A stretch of DNA of 64,000 bases, from NCBI GenBank assembly GCA_947627975.1, contig CANQYB010000003.1, positions 3,588-67,587 of the forward strand, read 5' to 3'. Of this stretch, positions 30,519 through 61,441 are shown piece after piece. A program made the position numbers and the translations under genes. The stretch comes from an uncultured Bacilli bacterium. GTDB lineage: Bacteria; Bacillota_I; Bacilli_A; RF39; UBA660. The first letter of the stretch is position 1. Each line of letters starts with the position of its first letter. The notes below the pieces were generated by a model. It was not told where the DNA came from. It searched no databases and worked only from the letters and a program-made list of their open reading frames with translations.

Positions 30519-31511
30519 ATGAAAAAATATTTAGTTTATACAATTACTTTTATTATAATTTTAGCTCTAATTATAACATCAATTTTTTTGTTTAAACCTA
30601 AAGAAAAAAATGAAAAAAATAAAATTAAAACAATTAAAGTAGCAGAAGTAACTCACAGTATATTTTATGCGCCATTTTATGTTGCAATAGAAAATAATTA
30701 TTTTAAAGATGTAGGAATTGATATTGATTTAATTTTAACATCTGGTGCTGATAATGTAGCATCAGCAGTTTTATCGAAAGATGTAGAAATTGGTTTTGCT
30801 GGTCCTGAAAGTGCAATTTATGTATATAATGCTAAAAATAAAGATTATTTAAAAGTTTTTGCTGGACTTACTAAAAGAGATGGTCAATTTATAGTAAGTA
30901 GAAAAAAAATTAAAAACTTTAAACTTGATGATGTTAAAGGCCAAGAAGTTTTAGGAGGTAGAACTGGAGGAATGCCCCTTTTAAACTTTCAAAACGCTTT
31001 AAAAAATGAAAATATAAAAGAAAAAGATTTAAATATTAATACATCCGTAGATTTTGCTGATTTATCTAGCGCATTTATAGCTGGAACTGGTGATTTTGTA
31101 AATTTATTTGAACCAAATGCTACAAAATTAGAAAATGAGGGGTATGGCTATGTAGTAGCATCAGTTGGTAAATATTCAGGTGAAGTTCCATATACTGCAT
31201 TTTATGCCCAAAAAAGTTATATAAAAGATAATAAAAAATTAATAAATAATTTTAGAAAAGCTTTAAACAAAGGAATTAAATTTGTAGAAAATAATAGTAA
31301 TGAAAAAATTGCAAAAACAATTTTAAATCAATTTAAAACATCATCTTTAGATGAAGTTATACAAATTGTTGATAGATATAAAAAAGCTGATTCTTGGTTA
31401 AAAAATACCAAAATACCAAAAAAATATTTTGAAAATTTAGAAGATATTATGATTTCATCAGGAAAACTAAAAAATTATGTTAATTATAATGATTTAGTTA
31501 TTAATCAATAA
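30519..31511 (+). CDS. ABC transporter substrate-binding protein, NMT1/THI5-like (NitT/TauT family)
   Basis: Signal-anchor N-terminus and NMT1-like fold; the next gene starts at this gene's stop codon (ATGA-style overlap). Confidence 0.75.
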   Translation: MKKYLVYTITFIIILALIITSIFLFKPKEKNEKNKIKTIKVAEVTHSIFYAPFYVAIENNYFKDVGIDIDLILTSGADNVASAVLSKDVEIGFAGPESAIYVYNAKNKDYLKVFAGLTKRDGQFIVSRKKIKNFKLDDVKGQEVLGGRTGGMPLLNFQNALKNENIKEKDLNINTSVDFADLSSAFIAGTGDFVNLFEPNATKLENEGYGYVVASVGKYSGEVPYTAFYAQKSYIKDNKKLINNFRKALNKGIKFVENNSNEKIAKTILNQFKTSSLDEVIQIVDRYKKADSWLKNTKIPKKYFENLEDIMISSGKLKNYVNYNDLVINQ

Positions 31512-32122
31512 TGAAAAAAATTTTATCTATTAAAAATATTTCTAAAACTTATCATACAAATCAAGGAGAAATTAAAGCAATTGATAATATATCTTTAGAT
31601 ATAAATGAAGGAGAATTTATTGCAATAGTGGGAAGTTCTGGGTGTGGCAAAAGCACCCTTTTATCCATACTTGCAGATTTAGAAAAAGCATCATCTGGGA
31701 CTTACAAATTTTACAAAGACAATTTTAAAATAGGTTATATGTTACAAGTGGATGCTTTATTTCCATGGCTTACTATTTTAGAAAATTCAATATTAGGTTT
31801 AAAAATAAATCATAATGATTCCAAAAAAAATATCGATTATGTAAAAAAGATGTTAATTACATATGGGCTTAAAGATTTTATGAATAAATATCCAAGTGAG
31901 CTATCGGGTGGTATGCGTCAAAGAGTTGCTTTAATAAGAACACTAGCAATTAAACCAGATATTTTACTATTAGATGAAGCTTTTTCAGCATTAGATTATC
32001 AAACAAGATTAGCAGTTTCTGATGATGTGTATAAAATAATAAAAAAAGAAAATAAAACTACAATTATGGTAACTCATGACCTAGCTGAAGCTATATATAA
32101 AATAAACATAAATAATTATTGA
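31511..32122 (+). pseudogene. ABC transporter ATP-binding protein, N-terminal fragment (disrupted by an insertion after ...VTHDLAEAI)
   Basis: Walker A (GSSGCGKST), ABC signature (LSGGMRQR), Walker B (ILLLDEA) and H-loop (HD) are present. The sequence then diverges into eight out-of-family residues before a stop. The missing C-terminus is found at 35686-35860. Confidence 0.8.
32086..32096. repeat. left copy of the 11-bp direct repeat TGAAGCTATAT flanking the insertion
   Basis: An identical 11-mer recurs at 35686-35696. Joining the two flanks restores an uninterrupted ATPase reading frame (HDLAEAISLADKIIVL). Confidence 0.8.
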
Positions 32123-32151
32123 AATAAATTGGTACCTTATTATTTAAAGAC

Positions 32152-32284
32152 CATATTTTATAATAGAAAGGAGAACTATTATGAATTCTTATCAAAGAGC
32201 TTTAAATTATATAAAAAATAATCAAGGCAAATGTCCAACATGTTGTTGTAGTGTTGGTGGTATTGGACCAACTGGACCTACTGG
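32152..32284. repeat. IR-left: 133-bp perfect inverted repeat (ribosome-binding site plus the first 35 codons of the collagen-like gene)
   Basis: Identical to the reverse complement of 34363-34495. Confidence 0.85.
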
Positions 32285-33329
32285 ACCAATCGGAATTGAA
32301 GGATTACCAGGTCCAATGGGAATACCAGGTGATAATGGTCCAACAGGACCTACAGGTCCAACTGGGCCTCAAGGTGAAATAGGAATTACCCCAACTTTTA
32401 CTATTGGAAATGTTACTATTTCTGATGATGATAATTACGCTAGTGTAACTGATACAGGTAATAATTTGGAACATATTTTAAATTTTATTTTTCCAAAAGG
32501 TAGTAATGGGACTGCAGGTCCGACTGGGCCAACAGGTCCTGCTGGAACTAGTGTTACAATTTTAGGATCTTATGATACAGTTGAAAATTTAGAAGCCTCT
32601 CATCCTACTGGAAATTCTGGACAAAGCTATTTAGTTGGTGATAATTTATATGTTTGGTCTAATGAAAATGATAATTGGATTGATGTTGGGCAAATTAGAG
32701 GACCACAAGGAGTACAAGGAGAAATAGGGCCAACTGGAAATACTGGACCACAAGGTATACAAGGACCACAAGGTATTGAAGGAGATATTGGTCCAACTGG
32801 ACCAACTGGGGCAACTGGGCCTACTGGACCTGCTGGCATACAAGAAATAGGTGCTGCTTATTTTGTAACATTTAACAACAATTCAGATGATGGTTATATT
32901 ATTAATAGTAATGAAAGAATTCCTATTACAAGAAAAGAAGTTGACAATACTGATATGTGTATTTTAAATAGCGATAATACCATTAAATTTAATAAAGCTG
33001 GTGTTTATAAAGTAGATTTTATTTTAACAGCTTTTACAAAAACAAATTCTGAATTTGATAAAACTAATGATATAATAGCAATTGGTTTTAAAAAGACTAA
33101 TGAAAATATAGTATATGCTGGAGGAAGTTCTTGGTATGTGTCAGAAACAAATACTAAAATTATAGGTCAAGGTTTATTTATCATTTCAAATCCTGATACT
33201 GAAATGATGGAATTAGTAAATATGTCAAAAACTACTTTAAATTTAAATACACCTCTTTTAGATTATACAACATCTGATTCTTATTTTGTAAATCCCGTTT
33301 TAACAATAATAATTCAATATCTTGGATAA
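32181..33329 (+). CDS. collagen triple-helix repeat protein, BclA-like (interrupted G-X-Y runs plus a C-terminal globular domain)
   Basis: [27 protein letters not shown] leader, GPTGPTGP repeats, a non-collagen insert (TSVTILGSY...[11 protein letters not shown]), a second G-X-Y run and a C-terminal domain of about 150 aa. Confidence 0.8.
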
Positions 33330-33356
33330 AAAAATTAGTCTTTTTTAGACTAATTT
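33330..33356. terminator. bidirectional terminator between the convergent collagen-like genes
   Basis: AAAAATTAGTCT-TTTTT-AGACTAATTTTT palindrome. Confidence 0.6.
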
Positions 33357-34466
33357 TTATATATTTTCATCAATTTTCTTAAGACTTAAAGAAGCAGTAA
33401 CTCCTGGTCCCAAGTTTATAATTACATTATTTTCTGTAGCTGATATAACCATATCTAATACATCATCAGCCATTAAAGAAATAATTGTACTTCCATTAAA
33501 ACTAACATTTTCGTTAGGCATAATTTGTTTTACTATAACAGCAGATGGAATCATAACATTATTTTCTCTTATCATTAAACTAATTATGGCAGCCTTGCTA
33601 CCTGTAAAATTAATTGAATAATTTAATTCATATATTCCATCTTGTTCTAATTTAATAGAATTTATAGGAGAATCAATAATATTGATATTATCCATAACTT
33701 CAGTAAGTGGCACTTGTACCCAAGTTCCTGCAGCCATTGTATCTAAAGTTGCAGTTATATTGTTATATTTTCCACCATAGGCACTTAATAATGCTGTTCC
33801 AATTGGGCCTGTTGGTCCTGTTGGCCCTTCTATTCCTTGAATTCCTTGGGGTCCAGGTTCTCCAGGAATACCTTGTAACCCTTGTATTCCTTGTATTCCT
33901 TGGGGTCCTGGAGGTCCTTCTATCCCTTGAGGTCCTGTTGGGCCAATATCTCCTTGAGGTCCTTTTATAGTTCCAACGTTTATCCACTCATTTTTATTAT
34001 CAGACCACACGTATAAATCATCACCAACTAAATAAGCATCTCCTATGTTCCCTGTTAAATGTTCATCTAATAATTCATTTAAATTACTATAAGAACCCAT
34101 AATAGTTACGCTAGTTCCAGCAGGTCCTGTTGGGCCTATTTCTCCTTGTTCTCCTTGAGGACCCGTTTCACCTATTGGTCCTGGTACTCCTTGTAATCCC
34201 TGAATTCCTTGGGGACCTGTTGGCCCAATTTCTCCTTGTTCTCCCTGAATTCCTTGAGGACCCGTTTCTCCCATAGGTCCTGGTACTCCCTGAATTCCTT
34301 GAATACCTTGAGGTCCAGTTGGCCCTGTTTCACCTGTTGGTCCACCACTTGGGCCTGTTGGGCCAGTAGGTCCAGTTGGTCCAATACCACCAACACTACA
34401 ACAACATGTTGGACATTTGCCTTGATTATTTTTTATATAATTTAAAGCTCTTTGATAAGAATTCAT
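33357..34466 (-). CDS. collagen triple-helix repeat protein, BclA-like (paralog)
   Basis: Same 35-aa N-terminal leader, G-X-Y repeats (GPQGIQG), the same interrupting domain (TSVTIMGSY...[11 protein letters not shown]) and a distinct C-terminal domain. Confidence 0.8.
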
Positions 34467-34495
34467 AATAGTTCTCCTTTCTATTATAAAATATG
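34363..34495. repeat. IR-right: 133-bp perfect inverted repeat
   Basis: Reverse complement of 32152-32284. Confidence 0.85.
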
Positions 34496-34513
34496 TCTAA
34501 TAATATTTTTAGT

Positions 34514-35659
<1,146 letters not shown>

Positions 35660-35665
35660 TTAATT

Positions 35666-35860
35666 ATGCTTAATTTATACCTAAGTGAAGCTATATCTTT
35701 AGCAGATAAAATTATTGTTTTGTCACAAAGACCAAGTAAAATTAAAAAAATATATGAAATAAAACTTTCAAGTAAAAATAACCCAATAGATAAAAGAAAA
35801 GCAAAAGAATTTTCAACCTATTATGATTCAATATGGAAGGACTTAGATATAAATGTCTGA
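35666..35860 (+). pseudogene. ABC transporter ATP-binding protein, C-terminal fragment
   Basis: From 35686 the frame reads SEAISLADKIIVLSQRPSKIKKIYEI, the typical NitT/TauT ATPase C-terminus. It ends in an ATGTCTGA overlap with the permease start. Confidence 0.8.
35686..35696. repeat. right copy of the 11-bp direct repeat TGAAGCTATAT
   Basis: See the left copy. Confidence 0.8.
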
Positions 35861-41080: not shown

Positions 41081-41938
41081 ATGAATTCATATCAAAGAGC
41101 TTTAAATTATATTAAAAATAATCAAGGAAAATGTCCAACATGTTGTTGTAGTGTAGGAGGCGGAATTGGACCTACTGGACCAACTGGACCAACAGGTCCA
41201 AGTGGAGGACCTACTGGACCTACTGGACCTACTGGACCTACTGGACCTACTGGACCTACTGGACCTACTGGTATTCAAGGATTAATTGGACCAGTTGGAG
41301 CTACAGGAGCAACAGGACCTACTGGACCTACTGGACCTACTGGGCCTACAGGGCCAACAGGTGAAACGGGACCAGCTCCAACTCTTACAGTAGGTGATAC
41401 TACTACTGCTTTACCTGGTGATGAAGCAGCTGTTAATATAGCTCCAAACGGTGATGGAGAATATACATTAACATTTACTGTACCTCAAGGTCCAACTGGT
41501 GCTACTGGAAATGGTCTTGGTGCATATGGAGGATTATATGATACAACACAAAATGCCTACTCATTAACTGCAAATACACCTAGCCAAATAACTTTAGCAA
41601 CTCCAACTCCACTTTCTAATGTTACAACTGGAACTAATTCATTAAATATTAGTGAAGCTGGAACATATGAAATTACTTATGCAGCAAATGTTACTTCAAC
41701 TGATGCCGATACTATTACTTTTTCTGTTAGAAATAGTACTGAAGATATACCTGGAACATCTATTTCCAACACATTCCAAGCAGGTGGACAATATAATTAT
41801 AATGGAAGCATTATAACCGATTTATCTGAAGGTGATGAAATAGATATGGCTTTAGAATCAACTGATGCTGCCGCTGGTAATGTTAATAGTGCAAATTTAA
41901 GTGTTAAATTAATTAGTCCATCTACTATAGCTGAATAA
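41081..41938 (+). CDS. collagen triple-helix repeat protein, BclA-like (third, diverged paralog)
   Basis: Same [27 protein letters not shown] leader, a long (GPT)n run and a C-terminal globular domain. Confidence 0.8.
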
Positions 41939-42005: not shown

Positions 42006-43091
42006 ATTAAAAAAATTTGTGTTTATGCCATATCAAAAAATGAAGAACAATTTGTAGAACGTTTTATGAAAACTGCAAATGAAGCAGATAAAGTATTTAT
42101 TTTAGATACTGGCTCAACTGATAATACAGTTTCTAAATTAAAAAAGTTAGGAGCTATCGTTAAAGAAAAAGAAATTAAACCATGGCGATTTGATGTTGCC
42201 AGAAATGAATCTTTAAAAATAATACCAGACGAATTTGACATATGTGTATGTTTAGATTTAGATGAAGTTATAATGCCTGGATGGAGACAAAAATTAGAAA
42301 AATTATGGGATAAAAATACTACTCGACTTCGTTATAACTATAATTGGCAATTGGATGAAAATGACAAACCAATAATAAATTTTTATATTGAAAAAATCCA
42401 TTTACGAAAAAATTATAAATGGACCCATCCTGTACATGAAGTTTTAACATATGAAAATAAAAATGAAGTAATTAAAACTACAAATGATATTACCGTTAAT
42501 CATTATCCTGATAATACTAAATCTCGTCAAACATATTTACCACTTTTAGAATTATCGGTAAAAGAAGATCCCGAAGATGATAGAAATATGCATTATTTAG
42601 GTCGTGAATACATGTATTACCAGAAATGGAATGAATGCATTGATACATTAATTAAACATCTAAATTTAAAAAATGCTACTTGGAAAGATGAAAGATGTGC
42701 ATCTATGCGATTTATTGCCAGAAGTTATATAAATTTAAAAAGATATGATGAAGCAAAAATGTGGTTAGATAAAGCAATGAAAGAAGCTCCCTATTTAAGA
42801 GATCCCTTTATGGAAAGAGCATTTTTAGAATATCGTTTAAATAATTGGAACGAAGTTGTAAAATATTGTAATAAAGCCCTAGATATTAAAACTCATACAA
42901 AAACATATATAAATGAATCTTTTAGTTGGGACTATTCACCATATGACTTACTTTCTGTTGCTTACTTTAACAAACAAGAATATGATCTTTCACTTTTTTA
43001 TGTCAATAAAGCCCTAGACATGGATAAAAATAATAAAAGATTAAAAGAAAATAAAGAGATTATTTTAAAAAGTTTAAAAACCGCTAACTAA
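42006..43091 (+). CDS. family-2 glycosyltransferase with C-terminal TPR repeats (start codon uncertain)
   Basis: The in-frame translation upstream of the first ATG (42066) reads KKICVYAISKNEEQFVERF, the canonical GT2 N-terminus. A ribosome-binding site (AAGAAGG) lies at 41991-41998. The likely start is ATT at 42006. The DxD region (CLDLDE) and TPR-like repeats follow. Confidence 0.65.
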   Translation: MKKICVYAISKNEEQFVERFMKTANEADKVFILDTGSTDNTVSKLKKLGAIVKEKEIKPWRFDVARNESLKIIPDEFDICVCLDLDEVIMPGWRQKLEKLWDKNTTRLRYNYNWQLDENDKPIINFYIEKIHLRKNYKWTHPVHEVLTYENKNEVIKTTNDITVNHYPDNTKSRQTYLPLLELSVKEDPEDDRNMHYLGREYMYYQKWNECIDTLIKHLNLKNATWKDERCASMRFIARSYINLKRYDEAKMWLDKAMKEAPYLRDPFMERAFLEYRLNNWNEVVKYCNKALDIKTHTKTYINESFSWDYSPYDLLSVAYFNKQEYDLSLFYVNKALDMDKNNKRLKENKEIILKSLKTAN

Positions 43092-58747: not shown

Positions 58748-61441
58748 ATGTACGAAGAAAAAAGAAAAGCTATTAACTGGAAAAGCTTAATAATTAAAAT
58801 TTTAATTTTAGCTTTAATTGTTTTTTTAGTTATTTGGGTAATTCAAGTAATTAATAATAGAAAAAATAATAATTCAAATAATAAAATATTTAATCAAAAT
58901 ATTGAAAATATGAACGATGCAGCTGAAAGTTACTATAAATCAAATGAGTTGCCAAAAAATATTGGTGACAAAAATAAAATTACATTACAAGATATGATTG
59001 ATAATAATTTGTTAATGGAATTTACTGATAAAAATGGTAATTTTTGTGATGAAAAAAACAGTTATGCTCAAATTACTAAAACAAAAGAAAATTTATATCA
59101 ATTAAAAGTTTTACTTTCTTGTGATGATAATACAGATTATTTGGTAAAAGATTTTAATATTGAAAATAGTAGCTCTGAAACTAAAGATACTACTGAAACA
59201 AAAGATAATATTGAAAATAATAAACAAGAAAAAAATCAAGAAGAAAGTAAGTCTGTTGAAGAAATAAATGAAGAAACAAATAATGTTGATTATATTGATG
59301 AAAAAGTTCAAGAACAAACTTATACTACTTATGAAAAGAAAAAAGTATATACATATACAACTCAATATGAATTTAGAAAATTACTAGAAGAATCAACTAC
59401 AAAATATACTTGTCCTGATGGATATTCTCTAATGGGTAATAAATGTTTTAAATCTATTATTGAATCGGAAATAAATGCTACTTTAGAATATTATGAGGAT
59501 AAAGATATTATTACAGATCCACTAGAAAAAATTGAAGATAGTAAAAAAGAATATACAGATCCAATAAAAAATACTACTGAACCAACTTACTCATGTCCAA
59601 GTGGTTATGAAAAAACTGGTAGTGGAATTAATACTAAATGTTATAAAATTTCAACTACTTCAAAAGTATCAACTTCTGCTACTAAAACATGTCCAAGTGG
59701 TTATACACTTTCTGGATCTTCTTGTATAAAATATGATAATGCTTTATCAACTCCTGCTAGTGCTAATTGTCCAAGTGGCTATGCAAAAATAAATAATTCT
59801 TGTATTAAATATAATAAAGCTGATGTTATAAATGCTACTGCTAAATGTTCAAGTGGTTATACATTATCTGGATCTTCTTGTGTTAAATATGATAAAGCTG
59901 CAACTATAAATGCTACTGCTAAATGTCCAAGTGGTTATAAATTGTCTGGATCTTCTTGTATTAAATATGATACAGCTACTAAAATTTCTGCAAAAATTTC
60001 TTCTTATAGTTGTTCTAAAGGATCATTAAGCGGTTCTAAATGTTATAGTTGTCCAAGTGGTTATACTCAAAGTGGTAAAGGTGCAAACATCTCATGTTAC
60101 ATAAATGTACCAAAATATAATACATCTTATGGAAACTGGTATGTTTATACAACTAGAAAATCTACAACTGCTTTATATACTTATTCTAATAATACTGAAA
60201 AAATGGTATATACAGGTTCTAAACTTGAAAAGACTTGCTCTAAATGTTATACAAGAAGAACATATTATTATTATACTATATATAGAAGAAATGTTTATAC
60301 AAACACAACTTACACAAAATCTTATGGAAAAGTAACAGTAACTAACGCTACTCCTAATTATAAATGTTCTAAAGGTTCTAGAGATGGTTCTTCTTGCTAC
60401 TACTGTAAATCTGGTACTGCTACAGGTAGTGGTAAAAATACTAAGTGTAAAATTACTAATAAAAATCTTACTTATTCTTGTTCTAAAGGTTCTAAGGACG
60501 GTACTTCTTGCTACTACTGTAAATCTGGTACCGCTACAGGTAGTGGTAAAAATACTAAGTGTAAAATTACTAATAAAAATCTTACTTATTCTTGTTCTAA
60601 AGGTTCTAAGGACGGTACTTCTTGCTACTACTGTAAATCTGGTACTGCTACAGGTAGTGGTAAAAATACTCAATGTAAAGTTACTACTAACCTAACTTAT
60701 TCTTGTTCAAAGGGTTCTAAGGATGGTACTTCTTGCTACTATTGTAAATTTGGTACTGCTACAGGTAGTGGTAAAAATACTAAGTGTAAAGTTAGTACAG
60801 GAGTACAATACAGTTGTAAAAATGGTACTTTATATCAAAATAAATGTTATAGTTGTCCAACTAATTATAAACAATCATCATCAACATTTAATTCTAGTTG
60901 TTTAAAAACTACTTATGTAAATTCAATTAAAAATAATGGTACAACAATATTATCTTGTCCAAGTGGCTATACTCAAGAAGGTAGTGGAAATAATATTAAA
61001 TGTTATAAAAATATAACAGGTAAAACATCTTATTATTGTGAAGATCCATTATCTAAGCTTGGAGCAGATAATAAATGTCATAAGAATGTTAAGGGTGAAG
61101 TAAAAGGATATGTTTGTCCAGAAGGATATGCATTAAAAGACCAAAAATGTTACAAAACAACAAATGAAGAAGTTGATGCAAAGGAAGAAACTACTGAAGC
61201 TAAATATGATTATACATGGAACAATAATGAAACATTAGAAGGTTGGGAATTTACTGGTAATACTAGAACTATTACTAATGAATCAGAAGTAACTATCGAA
61301 TCTCCAAAAACTGGTTTATTTGATTCAGATAATATTTCCAAAAATATTATATTAATTGGATTCTTAACTATGGGATTAGGTTTTATTTCTTACTTAATAA
61401 TAAGGCTGTTTAAAAATAAAGAAAAAAATATTATTCAATAA
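58748..61441 (+). CDS. large Cys-rich repeat protein with N- and C-terminal TM helices (897 aa)
   Basis: N-terminal TM helix, more than 20 C-x(8-10)-C hairpin modules (CPSGY-x-LSGSSC-IKY) and a C-terminal TM helix plus KNKEKN tail; contains an in-frame 114-bp tandem repeat array. Confidence 0.7.
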   Translation: MYEEKRKAINWKSLIIKILILALIVFLVIWVIQVINNRKNNNSNNKIFNQNIENMNDAAESYYKSNELPKNIGDKNKITLQDMIDNNLLMEFTDKNGNFCDEKNSYAQITKTKENLYQLKVLLSCDDNTDYLVKDFNIENSSSETKDTTETKDNIENNKQEKNQEESKSVEEINEETNNVDYIDEKVQEQTYTTYEKKKVYTYTTQYEFRKLLEESTTKYTCPDGYSLMGNKCFKSIIESEINATLEYYEDKDIITDPLEKIEDSKKEYTDPIKNTTEPTYSCPSGYEKTGSGINTKCYKISTTSKVSTSATKTCPSGYTLSGSSCIKYDNALSTPASANCPSGYAKINNSCIKYNKADVINATAKCSSGYTLSGSSCVKYDKAATINATAKCPSGYKLSGSSCIKYDTATKISAKISSYSCSKGSLSGSKCYSCPSGYTQSGKGANISCYINVPKYNTSYGNWYVYTTRKSTTALYTYSNNTEKMVYTGSKLEKTCSKCYTRRTYYYYTIYRRNVYTNTTYTKSYGKVTVTNATPNYKCSKGSRDGSSCYYCKSGTATGSGKNTKCKITNKNLTYSCSKGSKDGTSCYYCKSGTATGSGKNTKCKITNKNLTYSCSKGSKDGTSCYYCKSGTATGSGKNTQCKVTTNLTYSCSKGSKDGTSCYYCKFGTATGSGKNTKCKVSTGVQYSCKNGTLYQNKCYSCPTNYKQSSSTFNSSCLKTTYVNSIKNNGTTILSCPSGYTQEGSGNNIKCYKNITGKTSYYCEDPLSKLGADNKCHKNVKGEVKGYVCPEGYALKDQKCYKTTNEEVDAKEETTEAKYDYTWNNNETLEGWEFTGNTRTITNESEVTIESPKTGLFDSDNISKNIILIGFLTMGLGFISYLIIRLFKNKEKNIIQ
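60365..60817 (+). repeat. in-frame tandem repeat, 4 units of 114 bp (one unit is 111 bp), inside the Cys-rich protein gene
   Basis: Units encode CSKGSKDGTSCYYCKSGTATGSGKNTKCKITNKNLTYS; units 2 and 3 are near-identical at the DNA level. Confidence 0.85.

Follow-up and report, generated by a model that had tools for sequence, protein, structure and literature searches.

A stretch of 64,000 nucleotides from an uncultured Bacilli bacterium (contig CANQYB010000003.1, positions 3,588 to 67,587; hereafter the window) contains two convergent genes for collagen-like proteins, here called A and B, whose first 133 bp are identical in inverted orientation. This inverted repeat is probably the common 5' module of two tail-to-tail paralogous fibre genes of the BclA family, homogenised by gene conversion and carried by a small serine-integrase element, and not an inversion switch. 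The module would consist of three parts, namely, I) a cis-element (CATAnnnTA, a gap of 4-6 nt and a Shine-Dalgarno site); II) a Cys-rich leader; and III) the initial Gly-X-Y triplets. Across all paralogues, the module would be held alike by selection acting on protein and cis-element, and conversion between the inverted copies would have made A equal to B over 133 bp in this genome. Together with a recombinase gene, A and B would form a 3.6-kb integrative element that was inserted by this recombinase at one codon (…HDLAEAI|S…) of an ATP-binding cassette (ABC) importer ATPase gene. The recombinase is expected to work on attL and attR at the element ends, in integration and excision, and not on the 133-bp repeats. 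An occasional RecA-type crossover between the arms would flip the 2.1-kb interior, keeping both open reading frames (ORFs), leaders, and promoter-like elements intact, so that the flip is expected to be nearly silent.

The 133-bp inverted repeat

By direct string comparison, positions 32152-32284 (left arm, + strand) are the exact reverse complement of positions 34363-34495 (right arm, - strand). Each arm comprises 29 nt 5' of the ATG and 104 coding nt; the left arm holds the cis-element, a Shine-Dalgarno site at 32167-32173, the ATG at 32181, the leader, and the first Gly-X-Y triplets. In a repeat search the arms extend to 32152-32289 and 34358-34495, i.e., 138 nt at 99% identity with one mismatch. 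Codons 35 and 36 match past this single mismatch, and the two proteins have 36 identical N-terminal residues. On the outer side of both ends the identity breaks off immediately. A 56-nt probe derived from the repeat had no matches in 100 shuffled windows, and identical perfect arms are present in two independent metagenome assemblies (L001 and L002). The inverted repeat is real and is neither a chance occurrence nor an assembly artefact.

The genes behind the arms

Gene A (32181-33329, + strand; 382 aa) and gene B (33357-34466, - strand; 369 aa) both match Pfam Collagen, with scores of 51.8 and 77.4 bits, respectively. In protein A, the Cys-rich leader is followed by a first collagen stretch, a small domain, more collagen, a globular domain shared with B, a second collagen stretch, and a BclA/C1q-like head. 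Protein B has the same leader, followed by collagen, the shared globular domain, collagen, and a BclA_C head (PF18573, 38.1 bits against a cut-off of 38). For the last 168 aa of A an AlphaFold model was obtained (pLDDT 82), and the best solved structures found with this model in Foldseek were F-BclA (9h38, E 5e-8) and BclA (1wck, E 3e-6, and 2r6q), followed by C1q and TNF domains. Structure 9h38 is the head of F-BclA, the tip fibrillum of the Bacillus thuringiensis F-ENA, and 1wck and 2r6q are Bacillus anthracis BclA. A and B are BclA-family fibres with differing heads.

Overall, A and B are 40% identical, and they have in common a globular domain of ~60 aa between collagen stretches (TSVTI[LM]GSY…YLVGD.LYVWS…W..VG.I.GPQG; residues 120-175 of A and 115-170 of B; window positions 32628-32712 and 33950-34034). 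No Pfam family covers it; some homologues (P0122, P0187) have two or three copies, and PHROG tail-fibre profiles match it. The matches of these profiles to A, B, and C (a third paralogue, see below) are driven largely by the collagen and by this domain. An earlier reading of this DNA, made from its letters without database searches (the sequence-only reading), had described the perfect 133-bp repeat, as is borne out by string comparison and by the two other assemblies. It had also described a shared ribosome-binding site, start codon, and N-terminus, of which the sharing holds and the length of 35 aa should be 36. Its statement that the proteins diverge completely thereafter does not agree with the 40% identity, the shared domain, and the two BclA/C1q-like heads. 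Near-identical strains differ solely in the collagen region of gene B, by a 45-nt indel (ERZ27249530) and four single-nucleotide polymorphisms (DRR848814), at positions 33885-33923, 33870, 34057, 34164, and 34227; gene A and the repeats are invariant.

The leader motif M..Y.KAL.K…CC was found in 28 retrieved homologues of both the B-type and the A-type, with a Cys pair or triplet directly before the collagen. The A/B leader differs from the exosporium-targeting motif of the B. anthracis type, which was not matched, and it has no Pfam hit; in kind it comes nearer to L-BclA, whose N-terminus has a double Cys. For the L-BclA tip fibrillum, disulfide coupling to the appendage via the N-terminal double Cys has been proposed (PMC11362473). 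By analogy, the leader, an amphipathic stretch with the Cys cluster CPTCCC, probably anchors or staples the trimer by disulfides. Among 185,579 GTDB representatives, the exact leader pattern of the window is found in two species, both "uncultured Bacilli bacterium" metagenome-assembled genomes (MAGs) from the rabbit gut, and a degenerate form of it gave only two such species and had no match in IMG/VR or in JGI metagenome contigs. Since the pattern is limited to two MAG species, a wider sample of inverted pairs could not be drawn.

The third paralogue, C (41081-41938, + strand; 285 aa), lies outside the element and has a leader and cis-element as in A and B; its leader DNA is 94% identical to theirs over 80 nt. 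A gene for a GT2-TPR glycosyltransferase (42066-43091) is located 3' of C. In a second element-bearing species (locus L005), gene A has an orthologue with 59% identity. Gene B has numerous homologues, with 52-58% identity. The exact product of gene C is absent from a collection of 15 billion proteins that does contain A, the recombinase, and LigA of the same contig, which suggests that the length of its collagen repeat, or gene calling, varies between assemblies.

A cis-element common to the family

The non-coding part of the repeat is the cis-element of every family gene, regardless of orientation or neighbours. In an alignment of the regions 5' of A, B, C, and two L005 homologues, the block CATATTTTAT(A/T)(A/T)TAGAAAGGAG is invariant and the sequence further upstream is unrelated. 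CATAnnnTA, followed 4-6 nt later by a Shine-Dalgarno site, is kept in distant family members of L018, L019, L021, and L025; the genes with this element in other genomes include single as well as tandem ones. At A, B, and C, the dinucleotide AC stands exactly 16 nt 5' of CATA; for A and B it lies outside the repeat, on both flanks. By pattern match, a promoter-like AC-N16-CATATTTTA is located 5' of gene A at 32134-32160 (+ strand), with the -35-like AC outside the repeat and the -10-like CATAnnnTA formed by the first 9 nt of the repeat, and another 5' of gene B at 34487-34513 (- strand), spaced as for A. In the window, AC-N16-CATAnnnTA has 8 sites against 3.2 expected. The sigma-K consensus of Clostridioides difficile has AC at -35 and CATA… at -10, and bclA1-3 are sigma-K dependent in this species (PMC3789822). 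The cis-element resembles a mother-cell -10 box of the sigma-K/E type, and sigma-K-type expression of A and B may be proposed on this likeness; by analogy, the fibres may be located at the spore surface.

A scan of the region for sigma-70-type promoters gave 30 matches, no more than expected by chance (30.3). Between the convergent genes lies a 12-bp hairpin with a flanking A-run and T-run (33330-33358; -12 kcal/mol, z -4.6, with 0 of 200 shuffles as stable), which is likely a bidirectional terminator and would stay between A and B after an inversion. No terminator was found between the ATPase 5' part and A, nor between the recombinase gene and B.

Probable gene conversion between the arms

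A and B differ at 0 of 133 nt (0 of 104 coding), whereas either differs from C at 5 of 80 nt and by a 3-nt indel, with identical leader proteins. The tract of identity ends sharply at 32284/32285; beyond this point B is still C-like and A is not. In the leader of A, 20-23 of 23 residues match C-type leaders, against 13 of 23 for its own L005 orthologue, and the leader and the body of A give incongruent relationships. The perfect identity of A and B fits best a recent gene-conversion tract, for which a B/C-type sequence would have been the donor and A the recipient. Gene conversion is favoured because the tract ends are abrupt and because the A leader is B/C-like and unlike that of its own orthologue. 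The ongoing homogenisation proposed in the sequence-only reading is in line with these differences to C, the tract ends, and the C-type leader of A.

The 3.6-kb integrase element and the split ATPase gene

The element spans ~32097-35696 and carries A, B, and the recombinase gene. It divides the gene for the ATPase of a NitT/TauT-type ABC transporter into two parts. The 5' part (31511-32122, + strand; Pfam ABC_tran 2-136/137) is native up to 32096 and stops shortly after …VTHDLAEAI, following 8 element-encoded codons. The 3' part (35666-35860, + strand) is native from 35697 (SLADKIIVLSQRP… at 35697-35860); the end of the element supplies an in-frame ATG at 35666, as a result of which the detached 3' part is an intact ORF of 64 aa. 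The right end of the element mimics the displaced host sequence, i.e., 35662-35696 is 74% identical to 32062-32096 over 35 nt. When joined, the two halves encode 249 aa, colinear with CmpD/NrtD across the junction, and an intact 249-aa allele, 93% identical, is present in the close relative L026 in an uninterrupted operon of substrate-binding protein (SBP), ATPase, and permease genes.

The att junctions were mapped against the empty site of L026 and against L005, L029, and L032. attL (ACCTAGCTGAAGCTATAT, 32079-32096, + strand) and attR (ACCTAAGTGAAGCTATAT, 35679-35696, + strand), the latter from junction comparison, have the core TGAAGCTATAT (32086-32096) in common. They are direct repeats on the + strand, and the window has no other match to them, even at up to 3 mismatches. 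The deduced attB junction is CATGACCTAGCTGAAGCTATATCTTTAGCAGATAAAATT and the deduced circle junction is TTTATACCTAAGTGAAGCTATATATAAAATAAACATAAAT; the half-sites of the deduced attP follow the form TTATGYTTAWTTTATAY and make up an imperfect dyad.

The recombinase (34514-35647, - strand; 377 aa) is a large serine recombinase (LSR) of the integrase type, with the catalytic Ser10 in YIRVSTDEQ. It matches the Pfam families Resolvase (PF00239, 1e-40), Recombinase (PF07508, 7e-21), and Zn_ribbon_recom (PF13408, 8e-8) as well as PHROG 95, integrase (E 4e-103); matches to NCBIfam CcrB/CcrC/XisF-like families are below the cut-off. Compared with a 492-aa relative (P0009), it is missing ~100 aa, the coiled-coil region at positions 345-440, and SprA can be aligned with it only as far as residue 374 of 545. 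It belongs to a sizeable group of short LSRs of ~365-385 aa (e.g., P0004, P0008, P0014, P0030, P0051), in which the direction-controlling coiled-coil of SprA and of 490-aa relatives has no counterpart, a difference of ~100 residues; this loss may matter for direction control. A genome scan with the recombinase alone confirmed no relative. In IMG/VR no close relative was found, and GenBank phages reach only 37-39% identity. A prophage origin was considered and is unsupported, given a recombinase without a close phage relative; no phage genes are present either.

The same codon is split in other genomes as well, namely in L005-L012, with a recombinase of 70% identity, and in L029-L032, with one of 54-55% identity. 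The L005 element carries an orthologue of A, an orthologue of C, and a GT2-TPR glycosyltransferase gene on one strand, and it has no inverted repeat. In L029:4313-9836, L031, L030, and L032:4315-7710 the ATPase is split at …HDI[AS]E…, and the elements carry a PAP2 phosphatase gene, in some cases together with one for a 643-aa sulfatase-family protein; collagen genes are absent from these elements. In at least four lineages, the same domain is disrupted by this integrase clade. The cargo is variable and always envelope-related, i.e., either BclA-like fibres and a glycosyltransferase, or a PAP2 phosphatase and a sulfatase. Further serine-recombinase genes were observed at the same operon: in L032:7703-13104, genes for a 446-aa recombinase, an ADP-ribosyl-toxin-like protein, and PfkB stand between two fragments of an SBP gene, and in L030:3183-5104 a 422-aa recombinase gene adjoins a shortened permease gene. 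The SBP-ATPase-permease operon may be a hot spot for serine-recombinase insertions.

Both halves of the ATPase gene are under purifying selection. In the comparison with L005, the 3' fragment has a nonsynonymous divergence (dN) of 0.17 and a synonymous divergence (dS) of ~1.75, and the dN/dS of both halves is ~0.1-0.14, a constraint that equals that of the permease; divergence of the element genes is similar to that of their flanks. Two scenarios agree with these values, namely a long-resident element with a host gene that is still needed (via excision or split-protein function) or repeated site-specific insertion.

Two further observations were made in the window. The leaders of B (34387-34466) and C (41081-41160) form a second inverted repeat of 80 nt at 94% identity, which brackets 6.6 kb with the recombinase gene, the ATPase 3' part, the permease gene, a helix-turn-helix gene, an SDR gene, and DXS; an older inversion between these leaders, 6.6 kb apart, was considered as the source of the different gene order in L005 and dropped, since its predicted product does not match. 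At 58748-61441, a gene encodes an 897-aa membrane-anchored protein with many tandem Cys-rich units (…YSCSKGSKDGTSCYYCKSGTATGSGKNTKCK…).

Weighing of the explanations

Several points weigh against a shared module homogenised by conversion, on an element of this kind, or against parts of it. A start ~6 nt after CATAnnnTA would leave a 5' untranslated region (UTR) of only ~14 nt. Alternatively, the cis-element could serve as a regulator site or an mRNA site; the real promoters might then be situated beyond the repeat and not be the same in both slots. No sporulation-specific gene was found among the 20 window proteins in Pfam and NCBIfam scans, in which SigH-like and penicillin-binding protein hits were unspecific. 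In view of the very short 5' UTR and of this absence, the sigma factor assignment is one that we infer. A recent duplication instead of a conversion could also yield the identity of A and B, and a minority of inverted molecules would be compatible with three near-identical consensus assemblies. Lastly, the element has no ORF space for a recombination directionality factor, and its LSR is without the coiled-coil.

A conditionally excised gene-intervening element, as in regulated gene integrity of the skin/sigK or SPbeta/spsM type, is a possible if tentative explanation that is compatible with the shared-module explanation and goes further. The fibre genes would then be cargo whose expression takes place in the same cell type, and the repeat would be incidental. 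The coding sequence split at one codon, with a precise empty site in a relative at 93% identity, speaks for it, as do the low dN/dS of both halves between two element-bearing species and element genes that are as diverged as their flanks; recurrent disruption of the same domain by one integrase clade has been put forward as a criterion for regulated gene integrity (PMC7192596), and the 3.6-kb element shows this recurrence, in at least four lineages. These arguments are offset by the lack of a directionality factor gene in the element and of a sporulation-specific gene among the 20 window proteins, by an ABC importer that is no known developmental gene, and by the fact that intact halves are equally explained by independent recent insertions. 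A wider combination appears doubtful: the coiled-coil-less integrase clade would long have kept small cargo elements in one ATPase codon, acting as a gene-integrity switch that is reversible or excised during development; here they would hold a spore-fibre pair whose homogenised 5' ends would also allow head exchange between differently read-through slots.

A programmed inversion switch, as put forward in the sequence-only reading, is unlikely, and there is no evidence for programmed on/off switching. In such a switch, a flip of 32285-34362 would exchange the fibre body behind read-through from the ABC operon with that on the recombinase-gene side, giving alternating expression, and the recombinase would catalyse or assist the flip. 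The perfect 133-bp arms do flank a candidate invertible segment and are long enough for RecA-type recombination, and the conversion evidence shows recombination acting on them; homologous recombination between the arms must occur at some low rate. All spanning assemblies, however, show one orientation. In the window, in ERZ27249530 NODE_154, and in ERZ27249541 NODE_780, i.e., three consensus assemblies of near-identical strains from one study, A is beside the ATPase 5' part and B beside the recombinase gene; Logan contigs (k=31) break at the repeat (L003, L015, L016), as at any repeat >30 bp, and are uninformative on orientation. The orientation can be followed with markers for the left flank (TTGAAATAAATTGGTACCTTATTATTTAAAGAC), the right flank (AATATATAAACTAAAAATATTATTAGA), A (ACCAATCGGAATTGAAGG), and B (CCCAACAGGCCCAAGTGGTGG).

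The upstream transcription contexts of the two slots differ, since there is no terminator 5' of A or B. Against this stands a family-wide cis-element with the same AC spacing on both flanks, which makes both slots look equivalent; in either orientation, as far as can be predicted from the sequence, the coding sequences and the promoter linkage would be unchanged, with both ORFs intact, the cis-element in both arms, and AC-N16 on both flanks. The recombinase gene lies 18 nt from the right arm, yet its sites are direct repeats, an excision geometry, at the element ends, and none is found inside or near the arms. Known invertase sites measure tens of bp, unlike the 133 bp of coding sequence here. 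Same-strand genes without an inverted repeat are found in the L005 element and at the L019 and L025 loci, other genomes having A-type and B-type genes in tandem, and the cargo of further elements from this integrase clade is unrelated. It remains in favour of a switch that A and B are trimeric fibres, a class for which the expression of a single variant at any time may bring an advantage (PMC9881135). Neither inversion by promoter swapping nor its catalysis by the adjacent recombinase, as the sequence-only reading had envisaged, is upheld by these results, and the promoter it placed inside the 3' end of the recombinase gene is unsupported, as sigma-70 matches, there included, are at chance. 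Of its ABC operon on the left, the ATPase gene is confirmed; that this gene is cut in two by the element had been missed.

Conservation only, i.e., identity due to purifying selection on the leader and ribosome-binding site with no recombination between the copies, is very improbable. The leader and the upstream element are indeed conserved family-wide, but synonymous differences survive selection on the protein, and A and B have none in 104 coding nt whereas C, with the same leader protein, has 5 in 80; the sharp tract ends are likewise unaccounted for, and so is the fact that the A leader groups with B and C rather than with its orthologue. An assembly artefact by a false join at the repeated leader, for which the Logan breaks exactly at the repeat could be quoted, is scarcely credible, as breaks are expected for any repeat >30 bp, the interior is non-palindromic, and two SPAdes assemblies from different samples reproduce the 4.6 kb (L002/L004/L014 at 100%; L001/L013 with one 45-nt indel in B).

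Significance

The repeat itself is an ordinary outcome of concerted evolution, here in the 5' module that the paralogous surface-fibre genes share, and the locus should not be counted as phase variation without read-level proof. More interesting is the setting, in which an ATPase gene of several lineages is interrupted at the same codon by a minimal serine-integrase element of 3.6 kb. If its excision is regulated, a new target gene and a very small, non-phage type of element would be added to the short list of regulated-gene-integrity systems. A naturally coiled-coil-less integrase with mapped attB and attP could be of use to serine-integrase engineers. In an uncultured gut lineage, genes of the collagen-like family, recognisable by the Cys-rich leader and the conserved upstream element, are candidates for spore-appendage genes.

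Comparison with known systems

The G segment of phage Mu and the C segment of P1, inverted by Gin and Cin, resemble the locus in that trimeric fibre-like proteins, alternative C-terminal heads, inverted repeats, and an adjoining serine recombinase occur together; PHROG tail-fibre profiles also match A and B. In contrast, Gin and Cin are small invertases acting on sites of the 26-bp class, with the constant N-terminal part outside the segment, whereas the locus described here has two complete genes, no phage genes, and a recombinase that is an LSR of the integrase type, whose att sites lie elsewhere. In Campylobacter fetus, the shared 5' regions of the sap genes serve inversion. The sap genes and the Ureaplasma mba/UU172 genes (PMC3047005) are, like A and B, paralogous surface-protein genes with a conserved inverted 5' segment that is usable as a recombination substrate; there, however, a single promoter or expression site moves and both orientations are observed, whereas here each gene has its own upstream element and one orientation is seen.

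The gene-intervening elements skin (SpoIVCA, in sigK), SPbeta (SprA, in spsM), gin (GirC, in gerE), and the fdxN element (XisF) share with the 3.6-kb element the terminal position of an LSR, the interruption of a coding sequence, and short identical cores at both junctions; removal would restore the gene precisely, and an intact allele exists in a relative. As gin shows, gene-intervening elements need not be prophages (PMC5595907). The present element differs in its size of only 3.6 kb, in its target, an ABC-importer ATPase gene and not a known sporulation or heterocyst gene, and in a recombinase without coiled-coil; no directionality factor was found in it, and its excision is predicted from sequence.

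The closest match for A and B themselves is with the BclA, L-BclA, and F-BclA fibres of the Bacillus cereus group and C. difficile. The A/B leader is unrelated to the exosporium-targeting motif of B. anthracis, an extra globular domain interrupts the collagen, and A and B are carried on an integrase element; their host is an uncultured Bacilli lineage of the rabbit gut with ~23% GC. The likeness consists of a collagen stalk with a C1q/TNF-like head, a glycosyltransferase gene beside paralogue C, an upstream motif of A and B that fits the sigma-K consensus of bclA1-3, and an N-terminal Cys pair as in L-BclA.

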